The notes beneath the pieces were generated by a model. That model was not told the origin of the DNA and did not search any database. It saw only the letters and a list, made by a program, of their open reading frames with translations. DNA of 20,000 nt, taken from Elsinoe ampelina. Its lineage: Eukaryota. A program made the translations under genes and the position numbers. The stretch spans positions 61,392 through 81,391 of the forward strand of contig ML992525.1 of NCBI GenBank assembly GCA_010093995.1. Direction: 5' to 3'. Each line of letters begins with the position of its first letter. Position 1 is the stretch's first letter. This document shows positions 2,583 through 19,601 of this stretch, in pieces.

Positions 2583-3925
2583 ATGGATCCACAAGCTGTA
2601 GCCGAGTTGCAAGAGATTGTTGCGCAAGCAGGCATATTCAAATGGCCACTCTACTTCAGTATCCTAATACCACTATGGGCTATGATCGGAGGAATCGTGC
2701 GTCCCATATCATGCCTCCAACGGGCGAGCGAAGGCTAACAAGAATTGCTCTAGTCTTACCTCACACTCTTAGTTGTCGCACCGATCCCACGACCACCAAA
2801 GAAACCTGAGAAGCAATATGAAGCAATACTACCGGATGGTTCAGTCAGTCCCCCAACACCACTACCGGATTGGCATGAAGACTATAGAACACGGAAACTT
2901 GCGGCGAGGAGAGAGGGCAAATCGACCGCTGCTGTGCACACAACCACTGAGCCAGAGGTGTTCATGTCGCTAGTCGTTCCAGCCTTCAACGAGGAGGAGC
3001 GATTGACAGGCATGCTCGACGAGGCGGTCGAGTATTTAGACAAGGCATATCCCACCGATCTTAGCAAAGGGGTTGACAATGGCACCTTGTCTGAAACACT
3101 CAAAGGCGACAGCATTCGAGGAGGATGGGAAATCTTGGTAGTCTCGGACGGGTCCACAGACAAGACCAAAGATGTGGCGCTAGAATTCGCGCGCAAGCAC
3201 AAACTCTTTGACTCATCTACAACGAACGGGACAACAGCGCCCGTCTCGAAATATTCAAAGTCATCTGCGGCCGCACCAGTCGGGTCACCTGCTGGTACAC
3301 TCCGAGTCATTTCGCTCGAGCAGAACAGAGGCAAAGGCGGCGCCACTGTACATGGAATGCGGCACGCACGGGGAGCTTACGTTTTGTTCGCTGACGCAGA
3401 TGGAGCTTCACGCTTTTCAGATCTCGCAGGTCTTGTCGATGGCTGCGAGAGAGTTAAAGACACCAAGGGCCGTGCCGTTGGTATCGGCAGTCGAGCGCAT
3501 CTCGTTGGTAGCGAAGCGGTGGTGAAGGTATGTGTAAGCATGTCTGCCTATACGTGATCACGAGCTGACCCTACCAGCGTTCATTTCTCCGCAATGCTCT
3601 CATGCACTCTTTCCACGTTCTTTTGCGCATAATGACTCCACCCAAAACAGCTTCGATCAAAGATACCCAGTGCGGCTTCAAGCTCTTTTCGCGGCCTGCT
3701 TTGCCTTACATCGTACCATACATGCATAACGAGGGGTGGATCTTCGACGTCGAGATGCTGATGCTTGCCGAATATGCCAAGATACCAATGGTTGAGGTCT
3801 CGATAGGCTGGCACGAGGTGAAGGGGAGCAAGCTGAATGTGATATGGGATTCTCTGGGTATGGCATGGGGTCTTGCTATACTACGCTTGGCTTGGATGGC
3901 CGGCGTCTACACGAGGGACTTCTAG
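2583..3925 (+). CDS. ALG5: Dolichyl-phosphate beta-glucosyltransferase (GT2); join(2583..2696,2754..3527,3578..3925), 411 aa
   Basis: N-terminal TM (WPLYFSILIPLWAMIGGI|SYLTLLVVAP), then GT2 motifs SLVVPAFNEEERL, EILVVSDGSTD, NRGKGGA, LFADADGAS, IGSRAHL, IKDTQCGFKLF, GWIFDVEML and WHEVKGSKL. Confidence 0.95.
2697..2753 (+). other. Intron 1 of ALG5 (57 nt)
   Basis: Donor GTGCGT, branch GCTAAC, acceptor TAG 2751-2753. Contains an in-frame TAA; phase 0. Confidence 0.85.
3528..3577 (+). other. Intron 2 of ALG5 (50 nt)
   Basis: Donor GTATGT, branch GCTGAC, acceptor CAG. Joins AVVK|RSFLRNALM. Confidence 0.92.
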
Positions 3926-4625
3926 AGCGCTATTGGTTGCTGATAGACACGATCAACTACGGTGATGCCCTGATCGTCTATAGATCCAAGAAAAATAAGA
4001 AAGCACATGTGAATATAAATGCTCAAGCTCAAGTCCATGCTCTTCACTTATCGCCAAAAACTGCAACTTTTGGCGAGCATTCCGATGGTGATTGATCATT
4101 GACGGTCATCACTTCCAAGGTTCGTCCTGCACTTCACATTGCGATCATTCAATCCTGCACAAAACAATTCCACTTCGAATCGCTTGACCACATCGTACAG
4201 TGACCTTCTAAAATAGTAGACAGTCCACGAGGCTTGCTACGACTTTATACACACACAACTTGCCAGCTATCAGACCTTCGAGTGACAGAAAGTTAGACAC
4301 CGCAATTTCCAGAAGAACTCTACACAGGTTCACGACCACCGCTCAGCGAGATCGTTGTACTGCTGCTTGAGAGACACTGGTCGCACCTAAGCTCTCCGCT
4401 TCTGTTCTCCGATGATCACACCAACGCTTGAATAGCACAGATTAACACTCGCCGCTCAGCGGCAGGGAATCTGCTGGCTGGGAGGGGAAGCGGGCTTGGG
4501 AAGATATTGATGCTGCTTCTCACAGAGCTGTATTTGTGAGGCTCGGATCAGGACTTGGACGAGCGACCTAGGCAAGGATCCTGGCACAGGACTTCCATTC
4601 CCTCACAGTCGCCTAGTGAAGAAGC

Positions 4626-6506
4626 ATGGATCCACAAAGTGTCGTCTTTCAACCCCAGGATAATCTTTGGCGCCTGCAGAACGAGCTGCAGAGGATACAG
4701 GCTGTGCAAGCAGAACACTCGGATCGGATACTGAGGATAGAGAGGAAGCACGACGAGGACGCGAGGATGAAGTCGGTCTGGGGAGGTGCTTCACCTTTTC
4801 CCAACGTGCTAAGCGGCGGCACTCCACAGCAGAGTAAGAGCTTCGACAAGATGTGAGGTGAGGGACACTGATGATCTCTAGCTCCGCTCCATCAACCGAC
4901 GACAGATGCCTTCAAAGAGTTCGACGACGAATCTGCGAATCTGATCGGTAGTCTTCACCTCGACCCAGAAGAAGAGCCGAGGAGGATAGGAGCGACTTCG
5001 CGTGCAAACAGTGTGCGGTTCGACGAGTCGGCGAACCAAGGATGGGCTCACACATCACGGTCGTCAATGGACCTCATGCGGTCAGGCGGAGGCCTGCCAA
5101 TGAGCGAACGCACATCATCACACAAGTCCGAAGGCCGGGCCAGCTCTGTTCACTCCATACGCTCCGCGGCATCCGGTCGAGCGAATAGCTTGAACCTGGA
5201 TACTGGCTTTAGCTTCGGGGACTCCAACCGATCACCCGTCGACACTCCTGGTCTCGCCCCTGGTCTCTTCCTGCTCGGGTCTGTGCCGGCCATCATCAGA
5301 TGTTGGATGAACAACAGCTTCCGCCATGATGCCCTCTTATACGCTGCCGTTTGTACCGGGTCTCATAAGTCTTTCCTTGATCGAAGATTGGTGGACAGGC
5401 TGGGCTTCGCAAGTCGCATCAACATCACGACCTCTGGGTTGCAGACGATCGTGCTGCCAATGTACTTTCCCGAGGCCGTTCCTCACCCGACTTCAACCAG
5501 ATCTGGAAGCCCGGCACCTCAATTACCCACTCTCACAGTCACTTTCTCCATCTTGCCAGCTCCTCTGCTCGATAGCAGCGACGATAAAGGCATTCAGATC
5601 ATTCTAGGTAGCGATACCTTGCGAGTCCACAATGCTGACGTCCTCTTCTCTTCAAATAATCTCTCACTCTTTGATGATGACCGGAACAAGATCTCGATAC
5701 CTCTAGTGCGACCCGAGGACGAGCGGACTTTCAATGTCCTCCGGACGACTGCTTCTGAGCCTCAAGCACAAAGTCGACAAGTCAAGCCGGAGAGCAGCAG
5801 TCCCCCAAAGGCTATGATCAATGGTCTGGGGCAGAGCAGTCAGTCATCTGCGGAGAGTGTTCCATCACTGGCTGCTGGGGTTCCCATAGGCACACAAAGA
5901 ACTGCGGCGATAGCACCACCCCCAGGATTTGCGGCTGGACTAGGCGCGAACGACTCTAGCGAAGATGATGAGCCACCTTCGACGGGAAGATCGATACGAT
6001 TCGCCCAACTACCCTCACAATCATCCTCCTCAACCGCGACAGAAACTCCTTCAGTATCCAAGGACGGCGAGACTAATCGGACTACTCCAGCCCGGGCACC
6101 AACATCGCCAGCCATCTGGAGCAATTGGAGACAACGTGGACCGGAATCATCACAGACCAGTGCGATGGATTATGCAAATGCCAGCAAGGCGAAGGAGCCA
6201 GCGCCGAGGAAAGAATCGGGCATCAAGGTCTTGCGACCAATGAAGTCGGCTTCAAGGACATTCTCGGCAACGTCGACTTCGTCAGCCTCGAACGACGGCA
6301 AATCACGATTCTTCGATGACGGTAAACGGAGAGCAACAATGGAGTCGGTACCTGGCGATCAGCAACGTGAGGGTTCATCTTCAGTCGACGGTGGCGACAA
6401 GGGCATACAAGGACAGGGTGGCTCTTCCACTGGTGGTCAGGCACGGGTGAATCCTGCAGGTGGAGCATCTGCCTTCTCATGGTTGAGCAAAGGAGGCTCC
6501 AAGTGA
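4626..6506 (+). CDS. Uncharacterised fungal protein: N-terminal coiled coil + Ddi1/retropepsin-like domain (CTG motif) + disordered tail; join(4626..4833,4882..6506), 610 aa
   Basis: ATG 4626 and a clean intron join the two ORFs in frame (TPQQ|TPLHQP...RANSVRFDESA). Coiled-coil-like LWRLQNELQRIQAVQAEHSDRILRIERK. Central globular region with LYAAVCTGSHKSFLD and IILGSDTLRVH. Confidence refers to the gene model; the fold call is inference. Confidence 0.85.
4834..4881 (+). other. Intron (48 nt)
   Basis: Donor GTAAGA, branch ACTGAT, acceptor TAG 4879-4881. Contains an in-frame TGA. Confidence 0.88.
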
Positions 6507-7144
6507 GGGACCTACTACATCGCACACTGGATAGAGGTTGAGACGACTGTATGACCGGTGCGACATGATGATGAAGGATGAAACAATCCTAGGCATAATA
6601 CCTCGTAAGAACAGCGAGAATAATAATACAAACCATTGTGAAATGTGAATGATTATGACTGAGCAGAAGTGACAATGGCTGAATGTGGAAAGCAGGGGGC
6701 GGATAGAAGGCGCTCAGGAGAGACTGCTTTTTGTCTCTGCCAAAACGCTGCAGCTTCATCCATATATCTATCAATTCATAATTACCATCAGACAAGCGTG
6801 CTCCCGCCAGTTCATCATCGGCCAGTCAATCGCCAGACCAACCTCGCCATCCCACCAGAGATCCCCAAAGTTCGGCCAAAAATTTCAGCCCGCAGGACCC
6901 GCTCGCCGCCCAGCCCTGCACAAGAATCCAGGCACTTGGGAATTACGCACCATTCTTTACGTCAGACGTTCAAGCATCCGTCAAACCCCTCCGGACTACC
7001 TTCTCTCGCAAGCAGCATCCTCTGCTGTCACATCAATCTACCTGCTGTACCGATCGCGTCCTTCCCTCATCCGCGATCCACAGAAGAAACACTACTCATC
7101 CGCATCCTTCCCCGGAGCTGCCCAAACCTAGGGCAGCTCTCGCC

Positions 7145-10100
7145 CTGGCCGCAACAACGGCTTCCCACCCGAAGAAGCGCAAGACCACGCCTTCCACCAC
7201 AGCCACACCCACGGGCGTATCCCTCTTCGCTCCCGAAGTGCTCCATCCAGACCGCCAACCGTCGCCGTCGCTGGGAAGTTCGTCGCCTGCTCAGCTCACG
7301 AACGGCTTAGGGAGTACAAGCGCGCCTTCCTCTCCGCCCCACGCCGAGACCGCAGGACCGGTAGGTGGGCACAGGGGTTTCCTGGACGGCATCGACGCCG
7401 CGGCGGATAGTCCCAGCGAGGCGTATGCTGCGTTGACGCTGGGTGGTTCTGGGACTGGGTTTGGGATTGAGGACATGAGAGAGGAGGGAAGGAGGTCGGC
7501 GAGTCCGGCGAAGAGAAGTGCCGCTGCCATGGAGGGAGAGGAGAGCGAGGTCGAGATGGTGAACACTCAAGGAGAAGATGCGGCGATTGTGGATGAGAGG
7601 ATTAGCAGGGTCAGGGAGATTTCGAATACTTCAATCGAAGAGGGAGAGGAAGGATATGTCTTGGCAGCTGATTGGTTGAAGAGGGTGCAGGCGAGGTCAT
7701 CAGAGGGCAAGGGGAAAGGTGGACAGCAAGAGACGGCAGGACCGATCGGACCAGTCGACAACTCTGCGATTGTCCCCGAAGGAGCTTTCCAAGGCCCACA
7801 TCTGAAGTTCGAGAAGGGTGATGTCACATTCATCCCCATCAAGCCACAGCTGGAGCGAACAGAGGACTACGAAGTGTTGCCAAAGGCCGCTTGGGACCTC
7901 ATCGTGGAATGGTACGGCATTGCGGATCACCAACTACCCATCATCAGATTTGCAAAGAATACTGCACCTCCAGGATCAGCGGTGACGAACATTCAGTACG
8001 AGATCTATCCGCCTGTTTTCACGGTACGGAAGATGCTCAGTGCCGCCGACAAGTCTACCCGTCCACCTTCTCCGCCTGGGACTAATAACCCCAGCCAGGC
8101 AAATACTGTCCAGACAACACCAGAACGGGAAGCGCAGGCCGTGAAGCTTGTCGCTAGTCGTCAGGACAGATACCAGACTTTCCTCGCCCGGTGCAAGCGT
8201 GCTGCAGGCGTGCCACTTGAGCACAAAGTCAGGCCATGGAAGCAGATCAATACGCAACAGGTAGTGGTCAATCCAACGACTGCGAGCCGTCCTGGAATCC
8301 TCACGCCCGCTGCGTCAAGAACGAATTCTCCTGGTGCCGAGGACTCCACACAGTTGATATCTTCATCACCTCCAAGCCTTGTCGTGGATCGTTCTGAGTT
8401 TGACACCTTCGAGGAAGGTACCAGCATCGAGATCGTCGATCTCAAGGACGAGACTGGAAATCCGAAGTACAATGGCGGCGGCAGCATCACTCTCGACGTT
8501 GTTGGGCTTATCGAGGATCTGACGTTGATTCTTGAAGAGCAAGTACGAGGTCCCGCTGGTGGCGAATTCGTCTCGGATACCAAACGCACGAAAAAGAAAA
8601 ATGAAGAAGCTAAAGCAGCGACTGCTCAGGACTCGGATACTTCGACTTCGGGACCGGTCACGCGAGGTCGAGCTCGAAAGAGCGGTAAATCTCGAGGCAC
8701 CGTCGGGCTGCAGAATCTGGGCAACACTTGCTATATGAACTCTGCGTTGCAGTGTATCAGCCGCATCGAAGAGCTGGCCTGGTACTTCTTGAGCAACAAG
8801 TGGAAGCAGGAAATCAATGGCGACAACCCTCTCGGATATCACGGGAACATGGCCCGGGCTTATGCTGACTTTCTATCTGGGCTTCACAAGGAAGGGCAAG
8901 GCACGTTCACACCTAGGCAGTTCAAGAACGCCCTCGCCAATGCCCAGCCGATGTTTTCTGGATATGGACAGCAGGACTCCCAGGAATTCTTGAGCTTTCT
9001 GGTCGATGCGCTGCATGAGGATCTCAATCGCATTCACAAGAAGCCGTACCTCGAGAATCCAGACTCAGATGACAGCAAGGTACACGATCCAAATTACATC
9101 ACTGAACTTGGTGAGAAGTATCGCGAGAATCACCGAGCAAGGAACAATTCGATAGCCATGGATCTCTTCAGTGGTTTCTACAAGAATCGTATGGACTGCC
9201 CAGAGTGCAAGAAAGTCAGCATCACTTTCGATCCTTATTCTCTTCTGACCTTGCAACTCCCGATCGAGACAACATGGCAGCACAAGGTCATTTATATTCC
9301 GAACAAGGGCGAGGCAAGTCTGCGAATGGTCGACGTAGACAAAAGCGCCTCGATCCGCAACTTCAAGCAAAGATTCGCCGACAAGGTTGGAGCGAAAGCA
9401 GAGAATCTTTTCGTGGCAGAATTCTTCTCGAACAGACTCTACAAAGTGTGGAAAGACACCGAGCAGGTCAGCGAGATTGCTGAGAATGACAAAATTGCCG
9501 TCTTCGAACTTGACCATGCACCGACCAACATCAGCAAGACCAAGTCCTCGCAATATAGATCATTTTCGAGCCCGAGAAGCGAGGACATTCCGGATATGGA
9601 CTCACCGCTTGCTGACTACATGGCTGTCACGGTGGTCAACAGGACGAGGAAAAGTACGTTTTGGAATCCGACATACGAGCCATTGATTGTCATGATCTCG
9701 CGCGAGGAAGCCAAGGATTATGATCTGATACTCAAGAAGATCTTGGCCCAGGTTGCCAAGTATACTTCTCGCAATATCTTATCTGAGGATGCAGCTTTGC
9801 CAACACAACAGACAATCTCGCGCAAGAGCTCCGACAGTGGTCTGACCAGCAATACGGAAAGCCCAGAGCCGGTTGACGGTAAGCTCAGCGATCGGTCCGT
9901 GCCTTCAGAGGATGAGTACGTCAATGTCTCCATGAGGGATGGTTCTAGTCCACCTGCCGACGCACCTGACGACACTCAGGAGATCCTGAGACCTGGAACG
10001 GAAATTCCTAATGGGCTTCGCAGTCTCTTCCAGGTCGGATACTTCGCTTCAGTCAATGGCGACATGAATTGTACTGGTAACAATGGTACCATTGTGGCTG

Positions 10101-11789
10101 CGCCTATGATTGAGCGGGTGAACTACAACACATCGCGTAGAAGCTCTGTTGCATCCGCCACTTCCATACAGTCTGGGCAATCTGGCTCGACGGAACATTC
10201 GACCACAAGTGCAAGGAGCCAGACATTGTCTATCACTGCTGATGACGACGAGAGCGCGGCTACCCTTCTCACCGGTCACAATTCCGATCGCTGGGCGGGC
10301 GACGTGCACAGCGACTCTGATCAAAGCAATTTTGTTCAACCTGCCGACATGGTGGATGACAGCTTCAAAAGTAGCAGCCGTCGGAAGTATGAGAGGACAC
10401 AAAAGGGTCGTCATGGGAACAAACGTGCTCTCAAGACATATGGCAAGAGGGGTCAACGTCTGGCTCCACGCAAAACTGAGAATGTTCGCAGCTTCCCGCC
10501 CCGCAGTCTGTCCGGTCCCAATGCTTCTGATGATCCATATTATATCAAGCTGGGAGAAGGCATCGTGCTCGACTGGGCTGAAGAAGGTTGGGACGCCTTG
10601 TTTGGTTGTACCATTCGCTCGCCAGATGAACGTGGGTATGGTCTCATTGACGAGAAGACACTTCCTGTCGCCAAAGATCCCGAGCTAGATGCAAAGCTTG
10701 AAAAGCGTCAACGCAGAAAGAAGGATGGTATCTCATTGGAGGACTGCTTCGCCGAGACCGCAAGGACGGAGACATTGTCCGAAGAGAATGCCTGGTACTG
10801 CAATCGTTGCAAGGAATTGCGTCGTGCAGACAAGACGCTTGAAATCTGGACCGCGCCTGATATCCTGGTCGTGCATCTCAAGCGTTTCAGCGGTGAGCGA
10901 TATAGGCGGGACAAGGTCGATGTGCTTGTTGACTTTCCCACGGAAGGTCTCGATCTGTCCTCCCGTGTCGGTCTCCAGGAGGACGGGAAAGAGTACCTCT
11001 ACGATCTTTTCGCGGTAGACAACCACTACGGCGGTCTCGGAGGAGGCCACTACACTGCCTACGCCCGCAACTTCTGGGACGGAAATTGGTACGACTTCAA
11101 TGGTAAGCTCTCCTGTCTCACCCTCGTGCTCACTGCTAATGTGTCCAGACTCGATGGTCTCCAAAACCTCCCCTGGCTCCGTCGTGACCACGGCAGCCTA
11201 CCTCCTCTTCTACCGCCGCCGCTCCGACAAGCCCCTCGGTCCACCCTACCTCCAGGCTCTGGTCACCGAAGCCCGCGCCGCAGCCGACGCCTCCGACGAC
11301 GAACCCGTCGACGCCTTTGCCGGTGCAGGCCGCACTCTTGCCTCCGCGACAGAGCAGAAGAAATCCGACCCCACGACCCGCCTCCTCTTACCTGGTCCCA
11401 AGAAGCCGGAGCCGTTGTATGATTCTTCTCCGAGAGATGGCGCGCCAATCGGCACCTGCGATGGGAGGGTGATGCAAGGTCCCATTCGTCCGCCTGCGCT
11501 GGGGGGAGACGCGGGCTGGGGCTTCGGGGGACTGGATGGGACTGATGACGCGGACGCGGATGGGGATGGGGAAGGGGCGGGAGGCGCAGGGAGCGATGCT
11601 GATTCCATGAATCCTGAGACGGGAGAGGGAGATGGGGAGGGGAGGAGGGGGTTCATCTTGGGGGAACCGGAGGTGGAGCAGGAGGAGACGGGGGATATGG
11701 AGGGGGTGGTGCGCAGTGTGGAGTTTCTCGGTGATGGGGATGGGGATGGCAAGGCGGATGGCATTGACGAGGATGATGTGGAAGGGTAG
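7145..11789 (+). CDS. UBP12: Ubiquitin-specific protease, USP4/11/15-like (DUSP + C19 peptidase); join(start..11102,11149..11789). First in-frame ATG is 7475 (1422 aa); the proposed CUG start at 7145 gives 1532 aa
   Basis: DUSP motifs GYVLAADWL, GPIGPVDNSAI and DYEVLPKAAWDLIVEWYG. Cys box [20 protein letters not shown] (Cys codon 8729-8731), QQDSQEFL, Zn pairs CPEC and CNRC, VVHLKRF, His box YDLFAVDNHYGGLGGGHYTAY, WYDFN|DS, AYLLFYRRR. The start position is uncertain. Confidence 0.93.
11103..11148 (+). other. Intron of UBP12 (46 nt)
   Basis: Donor GTAAGC, branch GCTAAT, acceptor CAG. Splicing creates the FND motif and puts AYLLFYRRR in frame. Confidence 0.93.
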
Positions 11790-12381
11790 AGTTCTTCTTT
11801 GATGGTGGATTGGTGGGAGGGGTTGCGGGGTTCGAGTGAAGGGGATGAGGGGGTGGAGAGTTGGAGCGAGATGGAGGATGGGGATGGGAGTGTGGTTGCG
11901 GGAGAGGATGTGGTTGGGATGTTGCTGGCGAGTATTGGGGAGTGGGTGGATGTTGAACGTGGTGGGGAGAGGTGGGGGTATGAGGGGTTGGTTTCTTCGG
12001 AGGGGTAGGTCGTTGACGGGCTGGGGAAAGGGGGGGCAAGGTAGGGTAGTGAGTGATGGGCAGGGATCGGGTGGATGAGACATACGGATGGATGGCGATC
12101 GTTGCATGGTGGTATAGTATACAGGTCACTACAGAGCATAGGAGGCGTTAGACGCATGGAATATCGAGCATGGTGGTAGAAATGGCATTCGCTTGATCAT
12201 CACTGCTTGGTTCTGCCTTGATTGTCGTCCGACGCTCAGAGAAGTCTGACGCTCAGGGTAAATACTTGTGCAGAGGCAGATGCGAGGCTTGAAGGATATG
12301 ATCGCGAATCGTCAGATGATTTTTCCATTGATGGTTCACCTTCCAATACACCTGATCTCCCCTAGGGCACGAAAGAAGAGG

Positions 12382-15300
12382 TCAACTAAACCTCACCTCC
12401 CCCTCATAAACCCTCGCTCGCTGTTGTACCACAGCCACCAACTCCAGGATGAAATTCTGCAACACGACGATATTCGTGAGGACATGGCTCAGACTCACTT
12501 CCTTGGTCCCATCGTCCCTCTTACCCATGCCTTGCCCGTGTCCCACACGAGGCGAAGTCTCATAGTCTTCTCTTTCCGTGCCATCTCTTCCAGCAGCACT
12601 GCTTCCATCCCGCTCCTCACTGTCTCTTCCGTCATGACTCTGCCCTCCTGTCTCGCGGTCCTTACTCCTTCCCCTTTCAGGTGTCCCTACCGCAGAACTC
12701 CCCCTGCTACTCCCCGGCATGACTTCCCCTCTTAACCTCCCCGCTAGACCGACAGGACTGCGCGTTCGGGAGGCAAATCCGCTGTTGAAACCCGATGCTG
12801 TCTGCGGGGAAGACTCGGCCTCGCTTTCCGACTTTGTGGCGATGCCGATCACTCTGCCTCTACTGTCGAAGCGGACGCGGAGGTTGAGTGTTTCGGCGTC
12901 GTTCTCGCCTGATGAGCCGGGGGAGGCGGTGTACCGTGTTCCTTGGTGGGGTTCACGCGCGCCTAGAGGGGAGAAGCTGGGCGGGGAGAGGCCGCGGGCG
13001 GAGAGGCTGTTGTTGCGGCTGGGGTGTTTTGGTGGGGAGAGATGGGGGTGGAGAGGGGCCATGCGGGGTGGGGAGAGATTGTGATCTTTTTCTGGTGGCG
13101 GGGGCCGAAATACGCTGGCATTGAGGCTGGCGTGGGCGGGAGACGCGAAGGTTGGGTTACGCGACGTCGGGGAGCGGGATTGAACGTGAGCGTGGGTGAT
13201 AGAGGATGTGGGACTGGCTGGGCCGGCGATGTTGGTGGAGGGACGACGGCCACGAGGAATGGACGCTGCTCGGGTCGGGGAGGATGAGATTGAGGTTATG
13301 GAGGTGTGGCGGATGTGTTGGATGGGCGTACCGGCGTGCCTTGATCCCGGTCGTGACGGTGTGGGAGCCGGGCTTGGACTTGCGTGGCGCGATAATGACA
13401 AGGCTGGGTTCTTGGGAGGAATGAGCGGCTTGGCTGGCGACGAGAAGAGGTTGTCGATCTGTTGTGGTGTCTGCAGGATTGCTTTACGCTTCTGCAGTAG
13501 AGCATCGAATCGAGACAAGGAGTTCCGAAGAGAGTTGACCTGGCTTTCCAAGGACTGCAGAGTGCTGATGAGTACAGGTGCATTGGAAGGCTTGAGGATC
13601 GGCGGCCGATTAATGGACAGAGTTGCGGTCAAAGCAGATGCTTCTTCCTCGTCCAGCCATGATGGATCGAGGTGTCTGTGAGCATTCACCGTCTCTTTCC
13701 GCTTCTGGTTTTCGTATCGATCAGATCGAATGACCAAAAGGTCGCACAAGTCAATGTTGATGCTCATGCACAAGGCCATGACAGTCTCTGATAAAGCTAG
13801 ATTCGTATCGACTCCGTTACAAAGGAAGTTTTCGACAAGGGCGATGATGGCTTTCAAGCCAGTCTCATTCGTATCCAGCATCGACTTTGACACATGCTTC
13901 TGCATCTCGGAGAAGACAACGGAGTTATTGCGAGATGTGAAGCCGTGAGTAGCCTGGGCCCGTCGGACAACTGTCACCTCAAGGTTCCGCCGGACGTCAA
14001 ACGAAGCGCCGCTGAAAGCCTCGTCCATGCCATCGAGCCCGCCGATTGAGGCAGCGATACTCATCATAGCCGAAGTCTCCACAACAATGCCGCCAATAGT
14101 CCGCTCAGAAGTAAGATGCTCGCTCGTCAGTCTGACCAGAGCTCCGAGTGCATGCGCAGGTTGCAAAGTCAGTATAGTTGTGAAGAGCTTGAGTGCAGCA
14201 AAGGTCGTTTGTGGATTCTTTGACTGCAAGCCGTTGTGTATTAGGTCTACTAAGTTGAACAGACTCGGCTCCAGTCGTTCCTCTTCCGGCTCAGCGGGAG
14301 CCAGGATCATCAAGGACGACCGTCGCCTCATTACCGACGGTGAAGGAGGTCTTTCGGCGGGTGACCTTTGAGACGTGGCCAGGAGATATGAAAGCAGCAT
14401 ATTGGACAGACTTTCATCGGTCAAGGTCTGAAGAATGCTGTTCAAGTACGTCATGACTGCTACTGAAGAGCCGCCATCCGTATCCGAGGACTGCAACAGT
14501 GATGGATAGAGAAGCTGCTGGAGGAAAAGTATCTGAAAATGGTCCAACAGAGTCTGCTTGACATCGACGGATTTGCAGTGATCCAGGATGTCTTGCCAGA
14601 ATGTGAGATCGGACAGGAACGTGGCCATGTGAGCTTTGTGCGACTCGGACGATATGGTTTCTACACCCGTATCCTGATTATCTTCGAGGTAATCTGACAT
14701 TGCCAAAAGCATGGGAAGAGCATTTGGATCCTGAAGGAGAGATAGCTCCCTACTGAGCTGACTGTACAGAGCTCCAAGAGCAGAGGCCATGAGGGTAGGC
14801 AAGTCGCTGTGCACAATCCAAGCATCCAGAGTGACTGATCGCGAAGCAGCTTCGAATATGTACAGTAGTCCAGTCCTGGCAAAGTCGCCAATCCGTCCTT
14901 CGTGATGAACCCGATCCATGAAGAGATAGCATAACGGGAAGTCGTCCTTTTGTGTGATGCCAACAAAGCTCTTTTTCTCTCTCACAAACTCCTCTTCGCT
15001 CTCAGCTCTTCCAGACGGCGCAAACCACACATCGAGGATATCAGGTTCCAAGCGAATCTTGGCTGCTATGGCGAAAAGCACCTCCACAAGCTGCGCTTCG
15101 GTATCGTCGGTCACGTAGGCGTAGCCGGAATCCAGGACACGCATTGAGAATCGCATGAGGGACCTGGCGAAAGCTCTACTCGACACGAATCCCTCCATCT
15201 CGCTGTCGATGAGTATAGAGAAGAGGGCGACCGCTTCAGATATGACACGCTCATCTCTGCAGACCGAAGCAGCTCTTCCAATGGCTCCATAGATCTGCGA

Positions 15301-15980: not shown

Positions 15981-16284
15981 CAGAGAAGGAGTTACCAAGC
16001 CGATATCCTTCTGGAACGTCTAGAGTAGGAGTGGCCAAATTTGATCGTAACCTCACCTTGCCGGGCACATCACCGATAGGTTGACAAGCTTTCCTTGAGT
16101 TCACTTTTGTTTCTCCTTCTTGACAGTTCAAAGTCTATTGTTCTTATGACGGCCAAAGCAATTAACCTTCATAGACATGTAGTCAGTGGATGACAATGGA
16201 TCTTATTGTGGTCGGAATATATATTCCACCTCTGGTGTCCTTGGACACATCTCATTCTTCACTTCCGCCACATCATCGACTATC

Positions 16285-17250
16285 ATGTCCGACTGCATGC
16301 CGCTCCGCTGGAAGGGACCACACCCACACGAACAAGCACAGCTATTACCAAGGAGGCAATCAAGATGCTCTCGAATACCCATACGCTCGTCACATACCGG
16401 AATGCACGCTCATCAGACACCACAAAATCCCATCCCTCTCGCGCCGTCACAATGTCCGATTTCTCCAGGCGTCTGGATCCCCCGTGTCATCGACCACGGC
16501 ATCAGCGCGAACGGGCGAAGCTCCGCGTCAGAAGGATCCGACATCCCATCCCCTTCTCCGCTGCCGCCGGACTTCCCTGTCCTTGAAGAAACACGATCCT
16601 TTCTGGAGCAGACAGCACACTTGAACCGTCTCTGGCGACAAGGAACCAACTTCGACTGCTTCGTACGCGAATATTTGCCGGAATACGATTGGGAATCGCG
16701 GTCAAGCTGCCCATCACTTGCAGAAGACCACTCCGATCTCGCCTCATGCTCAAGTTCATCCTCCATCGCCACCTTCGACAGCCGCTCACCCACGATCGAC
16801 AGCGACTCGCGGAACCCCACCGACCTCTCCAACATCACAACCGACCTGCCTCCCTGTCGAATCCCCTTCGACTTCCCCCTCGACCCAGCCAACCACACCT
16901 TTATGAGAGAGCCCGCTCCTATCTTGCTACGCACCCACGCCCATCCTTACGCTTACGCTCGCGACACATCCTCCTCAGAACCCCTAGGCCTCGACATGGA
17001 CTCTACTCGTCCTGAACCGCAAACAGACGAAGAGTTGACAGTTAAGCTAGACTGTAAGATTTGCTTTACACAGACGGCGGACACGGCCTGTATGCCGTGC
17101 GGTCATCTGGTCATGTGTCGGTGGTGTTCGGCGCAGTATGGTGACAGAGGACGACATTTTGGACACACATCGTTGAAGATCGGGCAAGGGTCGCTGTGTC
17201 CGCTTTGTAGGGAGTCAGTGGACGAGAAAGTGAGGGTCAGAGTCGTGTAG
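16285..17250 (+). CDS. C-terminal RING finger (C3HC4, zf-C3HC4_3-like) protein, putative E3 ligase, 321 aa; paralog A
   Basis: CKICFTQTADTACMPCGHLVMCRWC...CPLCR with all eight ligands present. First in-frame ATG is 16285 (the ORF track opens at GTG 16186). The N-terminal part is low-complexity. Confidence 0.7.
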   Translation: MSDCMPLRWKGPHPHEQAQLLPRRQSRCSRIPIRSSHTGMHAHQTPQNPIPLAPSQCPISPGVWIPRVIDHGISANGRSSASEGSDIPSPSPLPPDFPVLEETRSFLEQTAHLNRLWRQGTNFDCFVREYLPEYDWESRSSCPSLAEDHSDLASCSSSSSIATFDSRSPTIDSDSRNPTDLSNITTDLPPCRIPFDFPLDPANHTFMREPAPILLRTHAHPYAYARDTSSSEPLGLDMDSTRPEPQTDEELTVKLDCKICFTQTADTACMPCGHLVMCRWCSAQYGDRGRHFGHTSLKIGQGSLCPLCRESVDEKVRVRVV

Positions 17251-17471
17251 GCGGAGATGACGGTGATGGGGCCACTTGGCCCGAAAGACACGATGGAAAT
17301 GGTTAAGAGCCCCTACCCCACAGGGCTCGGCCTTAACGGACTTTGACGATAATCTACATCATCTTTACTCTTTTGCCTCTTAACCCTTTACCTTGTGCTA
17401 CATCTCTACCTAGAGAACACTTCATTGCGTTATATGTCTAATGTATTTTTTCACTACCGTATGTCATCACA

Positions 17472-19601
17472 ATGGGTACTCTTTCTGGACAAGATGTCCG
17501 CTTACCAGATCACTGCGAACACAAATTACCAACTAGCTGTCGCTTAACTTCACTTCGAAATTGTTGCGCCTGTGCCGACGAAAGAGCTCATAGTCCAACC
17601 TACACGACGTATATTGACGGTGTTGGATTGGTACCGCGAGGAAGACGCTGGGATAGATACTGTTGGTTCTGCAAAGAATTTTGGTCACACCGGGTCGCCG
17701 CAACCAATCTACTGCCTTCGCAGACTCGCATTCCAGAGGTCCCCGATCAGACCACCTTTCTGGAACGATGGTACGAATTTCACCGCGGTTATCGGATAGT
17801 CACGTCACCAGATGGTTGGGAAGAGCGGATAGCTGTCCTGGGAGAGCCATGGGGTGATGTGTCGCCGGGCCACCTTCCCCGGACGCTGGACGAGTTGCGA
17901 GCTGGCACAGTGAGAAGCGCTGCAGATCCGGTGCAGCATATCACGGTGGAGCGGAGCACAGCTGAAGATGGCCCATCGCTGGAAGAGACGTTTGACCGGC
18001 TACTAGAGCAGGTGGACGAAGAGGATACTACCAGGACGGAAGAAATGAGCACGGAATCGCGGAATGATATTGCTAGCACCCAGCCGAGTATTCCAAGAAT
18101 GTCTGAGACCGAGAGCGTCCAGATACAATCGCCGCCGAGAACTACCAGACAAGTTGCAGGTAACGTGATGCAGCCTGCAACCGAGAGCATCCAGATACAA
18201 TCGCCGCCGAGAACTACCAGACAAGTTGCAGGTAACGTGTTGCAGCCTGAAACCGAGAGCATCCAGATACAGCCGCGGCCGAGAACTACCAGCCAAGTTG
18301 CAGGTAACGTGATGCACCCCACTGGCTCGCTACAAGCTCAGCACCGACGCGTAGCTGCGCTCAGGAGAGAGCTTGGAAGGATGAGCAGCGGTGTTGAGAG
18401 AGTCGTTAGCGCGCTGCGAGATCTCGGTGAACTAACAGAAGTGAGCAGAGCAACAGGGGAACTTGCTCAGCTCGAAAGATCACTTGGCAACATTGTGTCC
18501 AGGAATAGTCTCGCAGCGAATCGGACTTTTGAGGACGCCACAGCCAATGCCGCTCCAGATCAAAGGCTTCAAAGCGGTACTACATGGATCCAGAATCAGA
18601 GGAATGAACGGCAAAGCATCGATCGTGATATCTCTGCGCTAGACGCACTTTTGGTCAGAATGCAAGAGCAGAGATCGGCGCTTGAAATGAGAGCCGAAGA
18701 CTTGCGTATAGACATTCTTCAGGGTCAACTTCAAATCGATCGATGGCGACAGGAAGGTAGAGGTGCAGAGAATGCTAGGCGGGTCTTCGGCACACGCGAA
18801 GACATGGATCGGGAAGATTGGGTCAGTCCAATCAATCAGATGTTCACCAGAGCCTACGACAGGTTTAGGGATGCCGAGCAGGCACGAAGAGAGAATCGCA
18901 CGCCACCTGTATGGGGACTCCCTCCGCCAGCACCCAATCGGCAAGATATGTCATCTCGACCCAATGCCCACCAAGCGAATATTCCTGATCGACCAGAACC
19001 ACATTCGTCGCGCGACAGACGGTACATGTCTCCACAAGACGATGTCTCCGCTGAGAACGATCTTGCAATGCAGCAATCACTAGCACAATACTACTCCGAC
19101 CTCGCCTCCCCACCCCGATCCACGTCCACCACCACCTTCGGCAATCCTTACACCACCATCGACAACGAACCCCGCCACCCCACCGACCACGCCTTTCTAA
19201 GAGAAGACCCCACTACCTTCCCTCACACGCACGCCCACCCCTCCGCCCACACGTATGCCCACTCCTCCGCCCACCCCTCCGCCCGCACCTCCGCCCGCAC
19301 CTCCGCCCGCGACACCTCCCCCGGCCCGCCTCCCCTACCACTCGGCCTCGACGTCGACCCCGACCGTCCCGAACCGCGCACAGATGAGGACTTGACGGTA
19401 AAGCTAGACTGCAGGATCTGCTACACCCAGCCGGCCGAGATAGCGTGTCTGCCGTGCGGTCATCTGGTCATGTGCAGGTGGTGTTCGGAGCAGCATTGCC
19501 CCGGGTTGAGGAGTGATCGGACGGTGCCGGAGAGGAAGGGGACGCAGTGTCCTGCTTGCAGGAAGGTGGTGAAGAAGAAGGTTAGGGTGAGGTATGGGTA
19601 G
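17472..19601 (+). CDS. C-terminal RING finger (C3HC4) protein with N-terminal Cys/His-rich domain and coiled coils, putative E3 ligase, 709 aa; paralog B
   Basis: ACAATGG start context and an intronless ORF. RING CRICYTQPAEIACLPCGHLVMCRWC...CPACR. N-terminal DHCEH..C..CCAC..H..YCWFC. Central heptad-like segments and RVFGTREDM. Confidence 0.9.
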   Translation: MGTLSGQDVRLPDHCEHKLPTSCRLTSLRNCCACADERAHSPTYTTYIDGVGLVPRGRRWDRYCWFCKEFWSHRVAATNLLPSQTRIPEVPDQTTFLERWYEFHRGYRIVTSPDGWEERIAVLGEPWGDVSPGHLPRTLDELRAGTVRSAADPVQHITVERSTAEDGPSLEETFDRLLEQVDEEDTTRTEEMSTESRNDIASTQPSIPRMSETESVQIQSPPRTTRQVAGNVMQPATESIQIQSPPRTTRQVAGNVLQPETESIQIQPRPRTTSQVAGNVMHPTGSLQAQHRRVAALRRELGRMSSGVERVVSALRDLGELTEVSRATGELAQLERSLGNIVSRNSLAANRTFEDATANAAPDQRLQSGTTWIQNQRNERQSIDRDISALDALLVRMQEQRSALEMRAEDLRIDILQGQLQIDRWRQEGRGAENARRVFGTREDMDREDWVSPINQMFTRAYDRFRDAEQARRENRTPPVWGLPPPAPNRQDMSSRPNAHQANIPDRPEPHSSRDRRYMSPQDDVSAENDLAMQQSLAQYYSDLASPPRSTSTTTFGNPYTTIDNEPRHPTDHAFLREDPTTFPHTHAHPSAHTYAHSSAHPSARTSARTSARDTSPGPPPLPLGLDVDPDRPEPRTDEDLTVKLDCRICYTQPAEIACLPCGHLVMCRWCSEQHCPGLRSDRTVPERKGTQCPACRKVVKKKVRVRYG
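18108..18320 (+). repeat. Coding tandem repeat, 72 nt x ~3 (24-aa unit TESxQIQSPPRTTRQVAGNVMQPx)
   Basis: Units start at 18108, 18180 and 18252 (ACCGAGAGC...GCAGGTAACGTG), with only a few substitutions between copies. Confidence 0.97.
19230..19313 (+). repeat. Coding minisatellite, 12 nt x ~7 (TCCGCCC(A/G)CNCC; SAHP/SART)
   Basis: cacgcccacccc tccgcccacacg tatgcccactcc tccgcccacccc tccgcccgcacc tccgcccgcacc tccgcccgcgac. Confidence 0.9.

Follow-up and report, generated by a model that had tools for sequence, protein, structure and literature searches.

The UBP12 locus and its transcript

The 20,000-nucleotide (nt) stretch of the Elsinoe ampelina genome analyzed here (contig ML992525.1, positions 61,392 to 81,391; hereafter the window) carries on its plus strand the gene UBP12. 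Judging by the order of its domains, an N-terminal DUSP domain and then a USP/UCH domain, the gene product is Ubp12/UspA, a deubiquitinase of the USP4/11/15 type. The DUSP domain and the split USP domain are shared with Aspergillus nidulans UspA, Schizosaccharomyces pombe Ubp12 and human USP4-11-15 (PMC6627422, PMC7407660). The first 300 residues are 100% identical to the E. ampelina model P0003, homologs are named Ubp12 and annotated as associated with the COP9 signalosome (CSN), and the catalytic Cys and His boxes of the USP domain are invariant in the protein alignment. From this homology, the window protein would have deubiquitinase activity and bind the CSN. Our subject is the 5′ end of this gene, which in filamentous ascomycetes very probably makes part of its protein from a conserved ACG codon just behind a conserved RNA hairpin. 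The features of the locus, all on the plus strand, are:

6980–7156 (+): AUG-free 5′ leader of the UBP12 mRNA (minimum extent, from the starts of the RNA contigs)
7115–7139 (+): RNA hairpin with a 9-base-pair (bp) stem (7115–7123/7131–7139) and a 7-nt loop; the ACG follows 17 nt after its end
7145–7147 (+): in-frame, non-conserved CTG that precedes the ACG by 4 codons and has a good context
7157–7159 (+): ACG, putative near-cognate start of the long isoform, with A at –3, G at +4 and C at +5
7157–7474 (+): predicted N-terminal extension of 106 codons, rich in Ser, Pro and Thr, with the blocks PDRQPS and SPSxAYAxLxL common to Dothideomycete homologs
7169–7183 (+): PKKRK basic cluster (K-K/R-x-K/R), residues 5–9 of the long isoform, candidate monopartite nuclear localization signal (NLS)
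7425–7436 (+): short out-of-frame upstream open reading frame (uORF) of 3 codons (MLR, stop), opened by a weak-context ATG (GCGT ATG C) at 7425
7475–7477 (+): first in-frame AUG, opening the short, annotated-type isoform; the corresponding Met is also where many database models begin
7643–7954 (+): DUSP domain of Ubp12 (Pfam PF06337, E 1.4e-13)
8702–11102 (+): first exon part of the USP/UCH catalytic domain, which has a large insert (Pfam PF00443, E 3.1e-57)
11103–11148 (+): 46-nt GT..AG intron
11149–11789 (+): last UBP12 exon, after the 46-nt intron

On re-reading of the sequence, the UBP12 frame proved to be open from 6782, with its first in-frame ATG (GAG GAC ATG A) located 231 codons further on at 7475, as the initial annotation of this DNA had it. 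The elements it had pointed out in between (GCC-CTG-G at 7145, ACA-ACG-G at 7157, PKKRK at 7169–7183, and the sequence SPSEAYAALTL) were likewise all in place. Between 6684 and 7424 all frames are free of ATGs, and a simple motif scan of 6500–7660 returned no branch-point match. The uORF, which had been missed earlier, ends 39 nt 5′ of the main AUG, and its position is not conserved. In another frame, a 211-codon open reading frame (ORF) extends from an ATG at 6675 to 7310 and begins upstream of the starts of the UBP12 RNA contigs.

These contigs came from four public runs mapped on 3400–12400. None of the runs is recorded as RNA, and they were taken to be spliced RNA because each has at least one GT..AG joint (3525–3576, 4833–4882, 11101–11148). 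Contigs from three studies (X1, 6996–11101; X2, 7005–8256; X8, 6980–7772) span the region gap-free and with no letter changed, indicating that the hairpin, the CTG, the ACG and the extension are all on the mRNA, and that the majority form lacks an upstream exon and is not edited at 7158. In this majority form, the ACG is therefore present on the mature message, unspliced and unedited. The earlier view that no upstream AUG exon is spliced in gained support as well, since none was found in the RNA contigs across the region. The 46-nt intron is the sole joint in the UBP12 contigs (seen in X1, X3 and X8), and arithmetic on the exon ends predicts 1422 amino acids (aa) for the short form and 1528 aa for the long form. 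The contigs cannot fix the transcriptional start site (TSS) and drop rare variants: X1 starts at 6996 with an adapter-like loose end, X2 at 7005 and X8 at 6980, and the stretch of 6711–6979 without contig coverage gives only a weak hint of the TSS. At 6151 and 10413, X2, X3 and X8 have single-base differences from the window in common that X1 does not share; as far as the contigs can tell, these are strain polymorphisms rather than editing.

The ACG codon and the probable N-terminal extension

Orthologous DNA was gathered as 67 loci by catalytic motifs alone, blind to the 5′ end, and 31 of these had a DUSP match. Two loci with contig ends too near (L013 and L046) and three with weak DUSP matches (L035, L049 and L051) were removed, leaving 26 usable loci; a metagenome scan with one DUSP query found nothing. 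An ACG directly before a [AS][SF]-x0-4-basic cluster was present in 19 of the 26, so that the ortholog check proposed in the initial annotation did reveal a conserved near-cognate codon together with a basic cluster. L009 (found without the motif) and L020 have the hairpin and an in-frame ACG with the basic cluster further on, and L032 and L043 carry a weak in-frame AUG upstream of KRK instead of the ACG.

After removal of three near-duplicates, 17 sequences (16 loci and the window) were compared at the start position, where the Thr was picked by amino acids alone. This Thr is encoded by ACG in 17/17 sequences, against an ACG share of 23% among the other Thr codons of the extension and 25% from the DUSP domain onward. 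The context is equally constant, with A at –3 in 16 sequences and G in 1, G or T at +4, and C at +5 in all 17, and the codons flanking the ACG vary (6 kinds at –1 and 5 at +1). Between the upstream stop and the ACG, an in-frame ATG was found in 0/21 sequences; in L007, L015, L016 and L006 the in-frame stops lie only 5, 12, 12 and 13 codons before the ACG, again with no ATG between. The near-cognate ACG is thus conserved, its context is strong, it shares the frame of the main AUG, and no in-frame AUG precedes it. This pattern of conservation makes initiation at 7157 highly likely, in which case the extension would amount to 106 aa rather than the 110 aa counted earlier from the CTG.

Protein models tell a similar story. 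Homologous models that include the region share (F)-T-T-[AS]-S-x-K-[KR]-R-K, and their sequences farther upstream are unrelated. A T-[ASEP]-[SFA]-x0-5-basic motif occurs upstream of the DUSP domain in 131 of 304 homologous models (one of them, P0264, being a stray match). In a set of 184 proteins, 94 of the 109 motif-less models have at most 260 aa before the DUSP domain and show no motif because they start too late. Among the named motif carriers are Dothideomycetes, Eurotiomycetes, Lecanoromycetes, Geoglossomycetes, Sordariomycetes (Neurospora intermedia, Fusarium, Pyricularia) and Leotiomycetes. On these comparisons the extension seems real and deeply conserved, and it is apparently unannotated.

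Substitutions were further counted by codon position in ten aligned ortholog pairs. In the three close informative pairs, those between the ACG and the AUG numbered 11/7/29, 11/15/34 and 20/15/55 at positions 1/2/3, versus 14/14/14, 10/12/10 and 13/5/14 in the 150 nt before the ACG, where frame-breaking gaps occurred as well; one near-identical pair had 2/1/4 substitutions. In close pairs, coding-type evolution thus begins at the ACG and not before it, and the synonymous bias that the initial annotation had suggested looking for was found as a third-position bias between the ACG and the AUG. Coding in 6782–7156 was rejected in view of in-frame stops and frame shifts in the orthologs and the absence of third-position bias. 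Read by eye, the sections that precede the motif in the E. batatas and E. fawcettii models correspond in part to other reading frames of the window. In one genome alone, GC-rich sequence might by chance contain a long stretch that is open and free of ATGs; given the ortholog data, chance appears untenable as an explanation of 7157–7474.

The extensions are also depleted of out-of-frame ATGs. The 19 sequences hold 7 of these in 6666 nt, compared to 27.7 ± 4.1 expected from synonymous resampling (0/1000 runs were as low as 7), and the control stretch after the AUG holds 77 compared to 59.8 expected. Such a depletion would be expected if selection favored scanning through to the AUG, and AUG avoidance of the kind that marks a two-isoform gene with leaky scanning is therefore present. 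The earlier proposal of leaky initiation stands to this extent, with signs of scanning to a short AUG form and a long isoform of +106 aa; from these sequence patterns, both forms are likely to be produced. The out-of-frame ATGs that are left cluster some 80–88 nt after the ACG, where they open short uORFs (+82 to +85 in L006/L007, +79 in L025/L028/L033, +82 and +88 in L004), which might be chance or a damping element.

L032 and L043 would represent the same design with another leaky codon, to judge by their sequence. Their AUG has T at –3 and KRK about 75–85 residues in, and the 181 and 219 codons that follow before the next AUG contain 0 out-of-frame ATGs. Both of these long N-termini start in an identical TGT ATG ACG CCT context (L032:2280 and L043:2400), and the two loci are divergent and probably early-branching.

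The classical monopartite NLS follows the consensus K-K/R-x-K/R. This pattern is matched by KKRK in the window and by KKRK, KRRK or KKRR in most orthologs, and L004 has KKPR. What is borne out of the NLS-bearing extension proposed initially is a conserved basic cluster at its very N-terminus (19/26 loci), which probably works as an NLS in view of this fit to the consensus. The A. nidulans homolog UspA was described as one 1418-aa protein from an AUG, with catalytic C469 (PMC6627422). The A. nidulans var. acristatus model starts at the Met of MSGSE and has its catalytic Cys at 469, which matches the published number, so that the published UspA corresponds to the short form. Expressed from its native promoter, UspA-GFP was mostly perinuclear with a smaller nuclear pool, and this fusion pulls karyopherins; the searched parts of that paper contain no mention of an NLS or of the start codon (PMC6627422).

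A hairpin upstream of the ACG

Just upstream of the ACG lies a hairpin that had not been mentioned in the initial annotation, and in which 7115–7123 pairs perfectly with 7131–7139. The fold of 7085–7215 has a z of –3.31, with 1/200 shuffles as good. In the interval from –48 to –5 before the ACG, a hairpin was found in 19/19 sequences, with energies of –12.6 to –21.1 kcal/mol and a mean z of –2.5, compared to mean z values of –0.30 to +0.38 in seven control intervals, downstream ones included. The ortholog stems measure 7–11 bp and the loop plus inner stem 4–14 nt, and the 3′ arm lies 8–22 nt from the ACG (9 nt in 9/19 and 8–13 nt in 15/19). Since the hairpin falls in all three frames, it is not due to protein constraint. 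In 13/19 sequences from several classes, the 3′ arm is letter-identical over 6–7 nt; L003, L004 and L005 have G-U and U-G variants, and L019, L020, L025, L006 and L007 have different stems in the same place. These arms were compared by hand. Over the stem, the E. batatas model reads EPP in place of ELP, which would predict a matching change in the 3′ arm.

Rfam had 0 matches in 6900–7500 at E ≤ 1. The exact hairpin-plus-ACG pattern was found nowhere else in the genome (the reversed control had 1 match), so that nothing points to a gene family defined by this exact pattern. A downstream stimulatory hairpin of the Kozak 1990 type, about 14–18 nt 3′ of the codon, is not conserved (mean z –0.30 to +0.38), nor is any in-frame near-cognate codon 9–22 nt before the hairpin, where such codons occur at scattered positions in 8/19 sequences. 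A weak 5-bp helix that includes part of the ACG is predicted at 7147–7162 in this species alone; the orthologs have no conserved structure there. On balance, we lean towards the hairpin affecting initiation at the ACG, whether by raising or by lowering it.

Interpretation and biological meaning

We estimate at roughly 0.8 the probability that UBP12 carries an ACG-initiated extension alongside a short form that starts at the AUG. The ACG could instead be the main or only start, with the long form as the real protein and the AUG as an internal Met or a start for shorter transcripts from a downstream TSS. This would suit how very strongly the ACG, its context and the extension blocks are conserved, and also the position of the first AUG, which floats between 57 and 150 codons among orthologs and differs even between the near-identical L025 and L028. 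It nevertheless seems quite unlikely, as the fourfold depletion of out-of-frame AUGs between ACG and AUG is relevant only if scanning ribosomes cross this stretch, three loci do without the extension, and yeast 40S subunits pass over about 90% of CUG codons, even of those in optimal context (bioRxiv 10.1101/2021.12.08.471614). Initiation at the CTG at 7145, or shared between this CUG and the ACG, is very unlikely. CUG is generally the most efficient near-cognate codon (PMC5666671) and GCC-CTG-G is a good context, but a CTG occupies this position in only 2/19 sequences and has a strong context in the window only, an NTG codon within 6 codons is absent from 16/19 sequences, the E. fawcettii model lacks a Leu there, and the codon is only 5 nt from the hairpin. 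Of the CUG/ACG start put forward in the initial annotation, the near-cognate start at the ACG (17/17) is thus retained, and the CTG, rejected as a conserved start, would contribute no more than a minor additional start in this lineage.

An upstream AUG exon or upstream gene spliced into the frame, as in model P0003 (4626–6500 joined to 6806 onward), is hardly credible. Such a model does exist, over 200 aa precede the motif in 37 of the 131 models that bear it, and a donor-like site is present at 6503; the four runs, however, contain no such joint, and the contigs of the upstream gene run unspliced across 6503, to 6536 (X1) and 6615 (X2). Moreover, the fused partner depends on the lineage (PX/sorting nexin, GH76 and others) and the sequences before the motif are unrelated, as for gene-finder artefacts. 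We therefore reject P0003 as a fusion whose joint is absent from the RNA contigs. Least credible of all is C-to-U editing of the ACG into AUG with the hairpin as guide structure: the ACG is invariant, its context is AUG-like and a conserved structure adjoins it, but 7158 is unchanged in the three covering contigs, and 6151 and 10413 are the only positions at which any contig differs from the window (minor or stage-specific editing being invisible in contigs). To our knowledge, C-to-U mRNA editing is not on record in these fungi. As for the hairpin, the inverted repeat might be a sequence-specific element, such as a palindrome for a transcription factor on the DNA or a site for an RNA-binding protein, that has no action on scanning. 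The identity of the 3′ arm over 6–7 nt in 13/19 sequences goes beyond what pairing requires and would fit this; the variable loop length (4–14 nt), the G-U/U-G variants, the other stem sequences and the spacing held at 8–13 nt in 15/19 make it unlikely.

A number of observations weigh against the two-form reading or limit it. L008, L010 and L036 (3/26), for which the nearest named protein is from Rhinocladiella, have no extension, and L002 has one of just 57 codons. The third-position bias weakens in five distant pairs, and the window and L002 show none (23/18/18, in a poor alignment of 318 versus 171 nt). The 17 sequences compared at the ACG are related and not 17 independent events, yet they span several classes. 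For the hairpin, z is below –2 in only 11/19 sequences, and the –48 to –5 interval was chosen after the hairpin had been seen. Run X3 has thin coverage upstream of 7454. The short form retains two other basic clusters, bimolecular fluorescence complementation of UspA with CsnB gave a nuclear signal with a fusion length fitting the annotated short ORF (PMC6627422), and efficient nuclear transport of S. pombe Ubp12 depends on the CSN (PMC7407660), indicating that nuclear entry need not depend on the extension. The three loci with no extension have an out-of-frame ATG 55–61 nt before the first AUG (L008:3159, L010:1995, L036:3102) and a common 20-nt motif further upstream; this ATG possibly opens a conserved uORF in place of the ACG system.

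Many database UBP12 models look wrong at their 5′ end, being truncated at the AUG, provided with invented first exons, or fused to neighboring genes. The partner fused in P0003 is the gene 5′ of UBP12 (4237–6615, plus strand), which has no Pfam match in its 543-aa exon; Eurotiomycete and lichen models have a fused partner with PX or GH76 domains instead. In light of these fusions, names like ‘sorting nexin-41’ on some UBP12 entries look like artefacts. Elsewhere in the window, the adjacent ORFs at 16183–17250 and 17442–19601 (plus strand) each end in a C3HC4 RING (PF13920) with similar C-terminal tails and are probably a local duplication, and the latter contains three copies of a 72-nt repeat at 18103–18316. 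An extreme plus-strand G-skew (up to 0.75) extends over 11400–12100, across the acidic last UBP12 exon and the 3′ end of a convergent RAI16-like gene.

The upstream start of FGF2 is a CUG codon. FGF2 has alternative-start isoforms (PMC5666671), and UBP12 resembles it in that an upstream non-AUG start would give a nuclear isoform; it differs in that FGF2 is mammalian and has several starts, and no homology of the elements is known. Among fungal systems, the near-cognate codon NCC8 of Neurospora crassa cpc-1 is an ACG in near-optimal context in 98/100 species across the Pezizomycotina (PMC5487733). Both genes have a conserved in-frame ACG that lies upstream of their main AUG and a start that annotations leave unresolved, but cpc-1 has several near-cognate codons and GCN4-type uORFs, whereas UBP12 has a single ACG and lacks a conserved uORF, and its basic cluster at residue 6 and its upstream hairpin set it apart as well. 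Near-cognate dual targeting is established for yeast ALA1 (ACG) and GRS1 (UUG) (PMC5666671), Cryptococcus leucyl-tRNA synthetase has an ACG start (PMC7049704), and a leaky start adds the peroxisomal targeting signal PTS2 to Ustilago PGD (PMC7214817). In all of these, the protein acquires a targeting signal through a leaky non-AUG start and is otherwise unchanged, as proposed for UBP12; theirs are mitochondrial or peroxisomal signals, whereas the UBP12 candidate is an NLS on a deubiquitinase. A search of the literature found no report of a non-AUG start for UBP12/uspA, although a listing in supplements or subscription papers is possible.

With regard to the hairpin, the Kozak 1990 hairpin at +14 and the PTEN-beta hairpin at +18 assist non-AUG initiation (PMC5666671). 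The UBP12 hairpin likewise has a fixed short distance from a weak start codon; unlike these downstream stimulators it lies upstream, with no conserved downstream structure. Yeast single-molecule work indicated that start-proximal upstream hairpins drive the 40S subunit backward and force rescans, with a plateau beyond –12.2 kcal/mol, and that upstream start-proximal structure is selected against in yeast, the hairpins being tested on engineered AUG starts only (bioRxiv 10.1101/2021.12.08.471614). The UBP12 hairpin shares the position and strength of those yeast hairpins, and, being conserved, it is a natural case of the arrangement studied in engineered mRNAs and offers a handle on 5′ structure in start-codon choice.

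The combined data suggest the following scheme for UBP12. On the AUG-free leader, scanning 43S complexes would melt the 7–11 bp hairpin and meet the ACG, in its near-optimal context, 8–22 nt (mostly 9 nt) further on. A minority would initiate there, yielding a long Ubp12 that begins M-[AS]-S-x-x-KKRK (M-A-S-H-P-K-K-R-K in the window), and the rest would scan through some 300–400 nt largely purged of AUGs to the first AUG, producing the shorter annotated protein. The long form would most likely be imported via importin-alpha, creating a CSN-independent nuclear pool of a CSN-associated deubiquitinase. The hairpin is placed such that it would form anew at the mRNA exit channel when a ribosome sits on the ACG, and would most likely tune the use of this codon by pulling the 40S subunit back and forcing rescans; it could thereby damp a strong ACG or grant it repeated tries. 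The ratio of long to short form would then respond to eIF4A activity, temperature and start-codon stringency. Tentatively, hairpin, spacer and ACG might form a natural start-site device across several ascomycete classes, acting as an eIF4A- or temperature-sensitive dial for the nuclear share of Ubp12, although we regard this as rather less likely than not. If true, it would be a type of non-AUG control element of which we found no description.

In A. nidulans, the CSN-associated UspA governs VeA levels as well as development and secondary metabolism (PMC6627422). The small nuclear pool of UspA is left unexplained in that work, and a minor isoform with an N-terminal basic cluster offers a testable reason for it. 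As the extension is apparently unannotated, constructs based on the annotated ORF would miss it, and, if our reading is true, the UspA/Ubp12 ORF that has been studied would lack its nuclear isoform.

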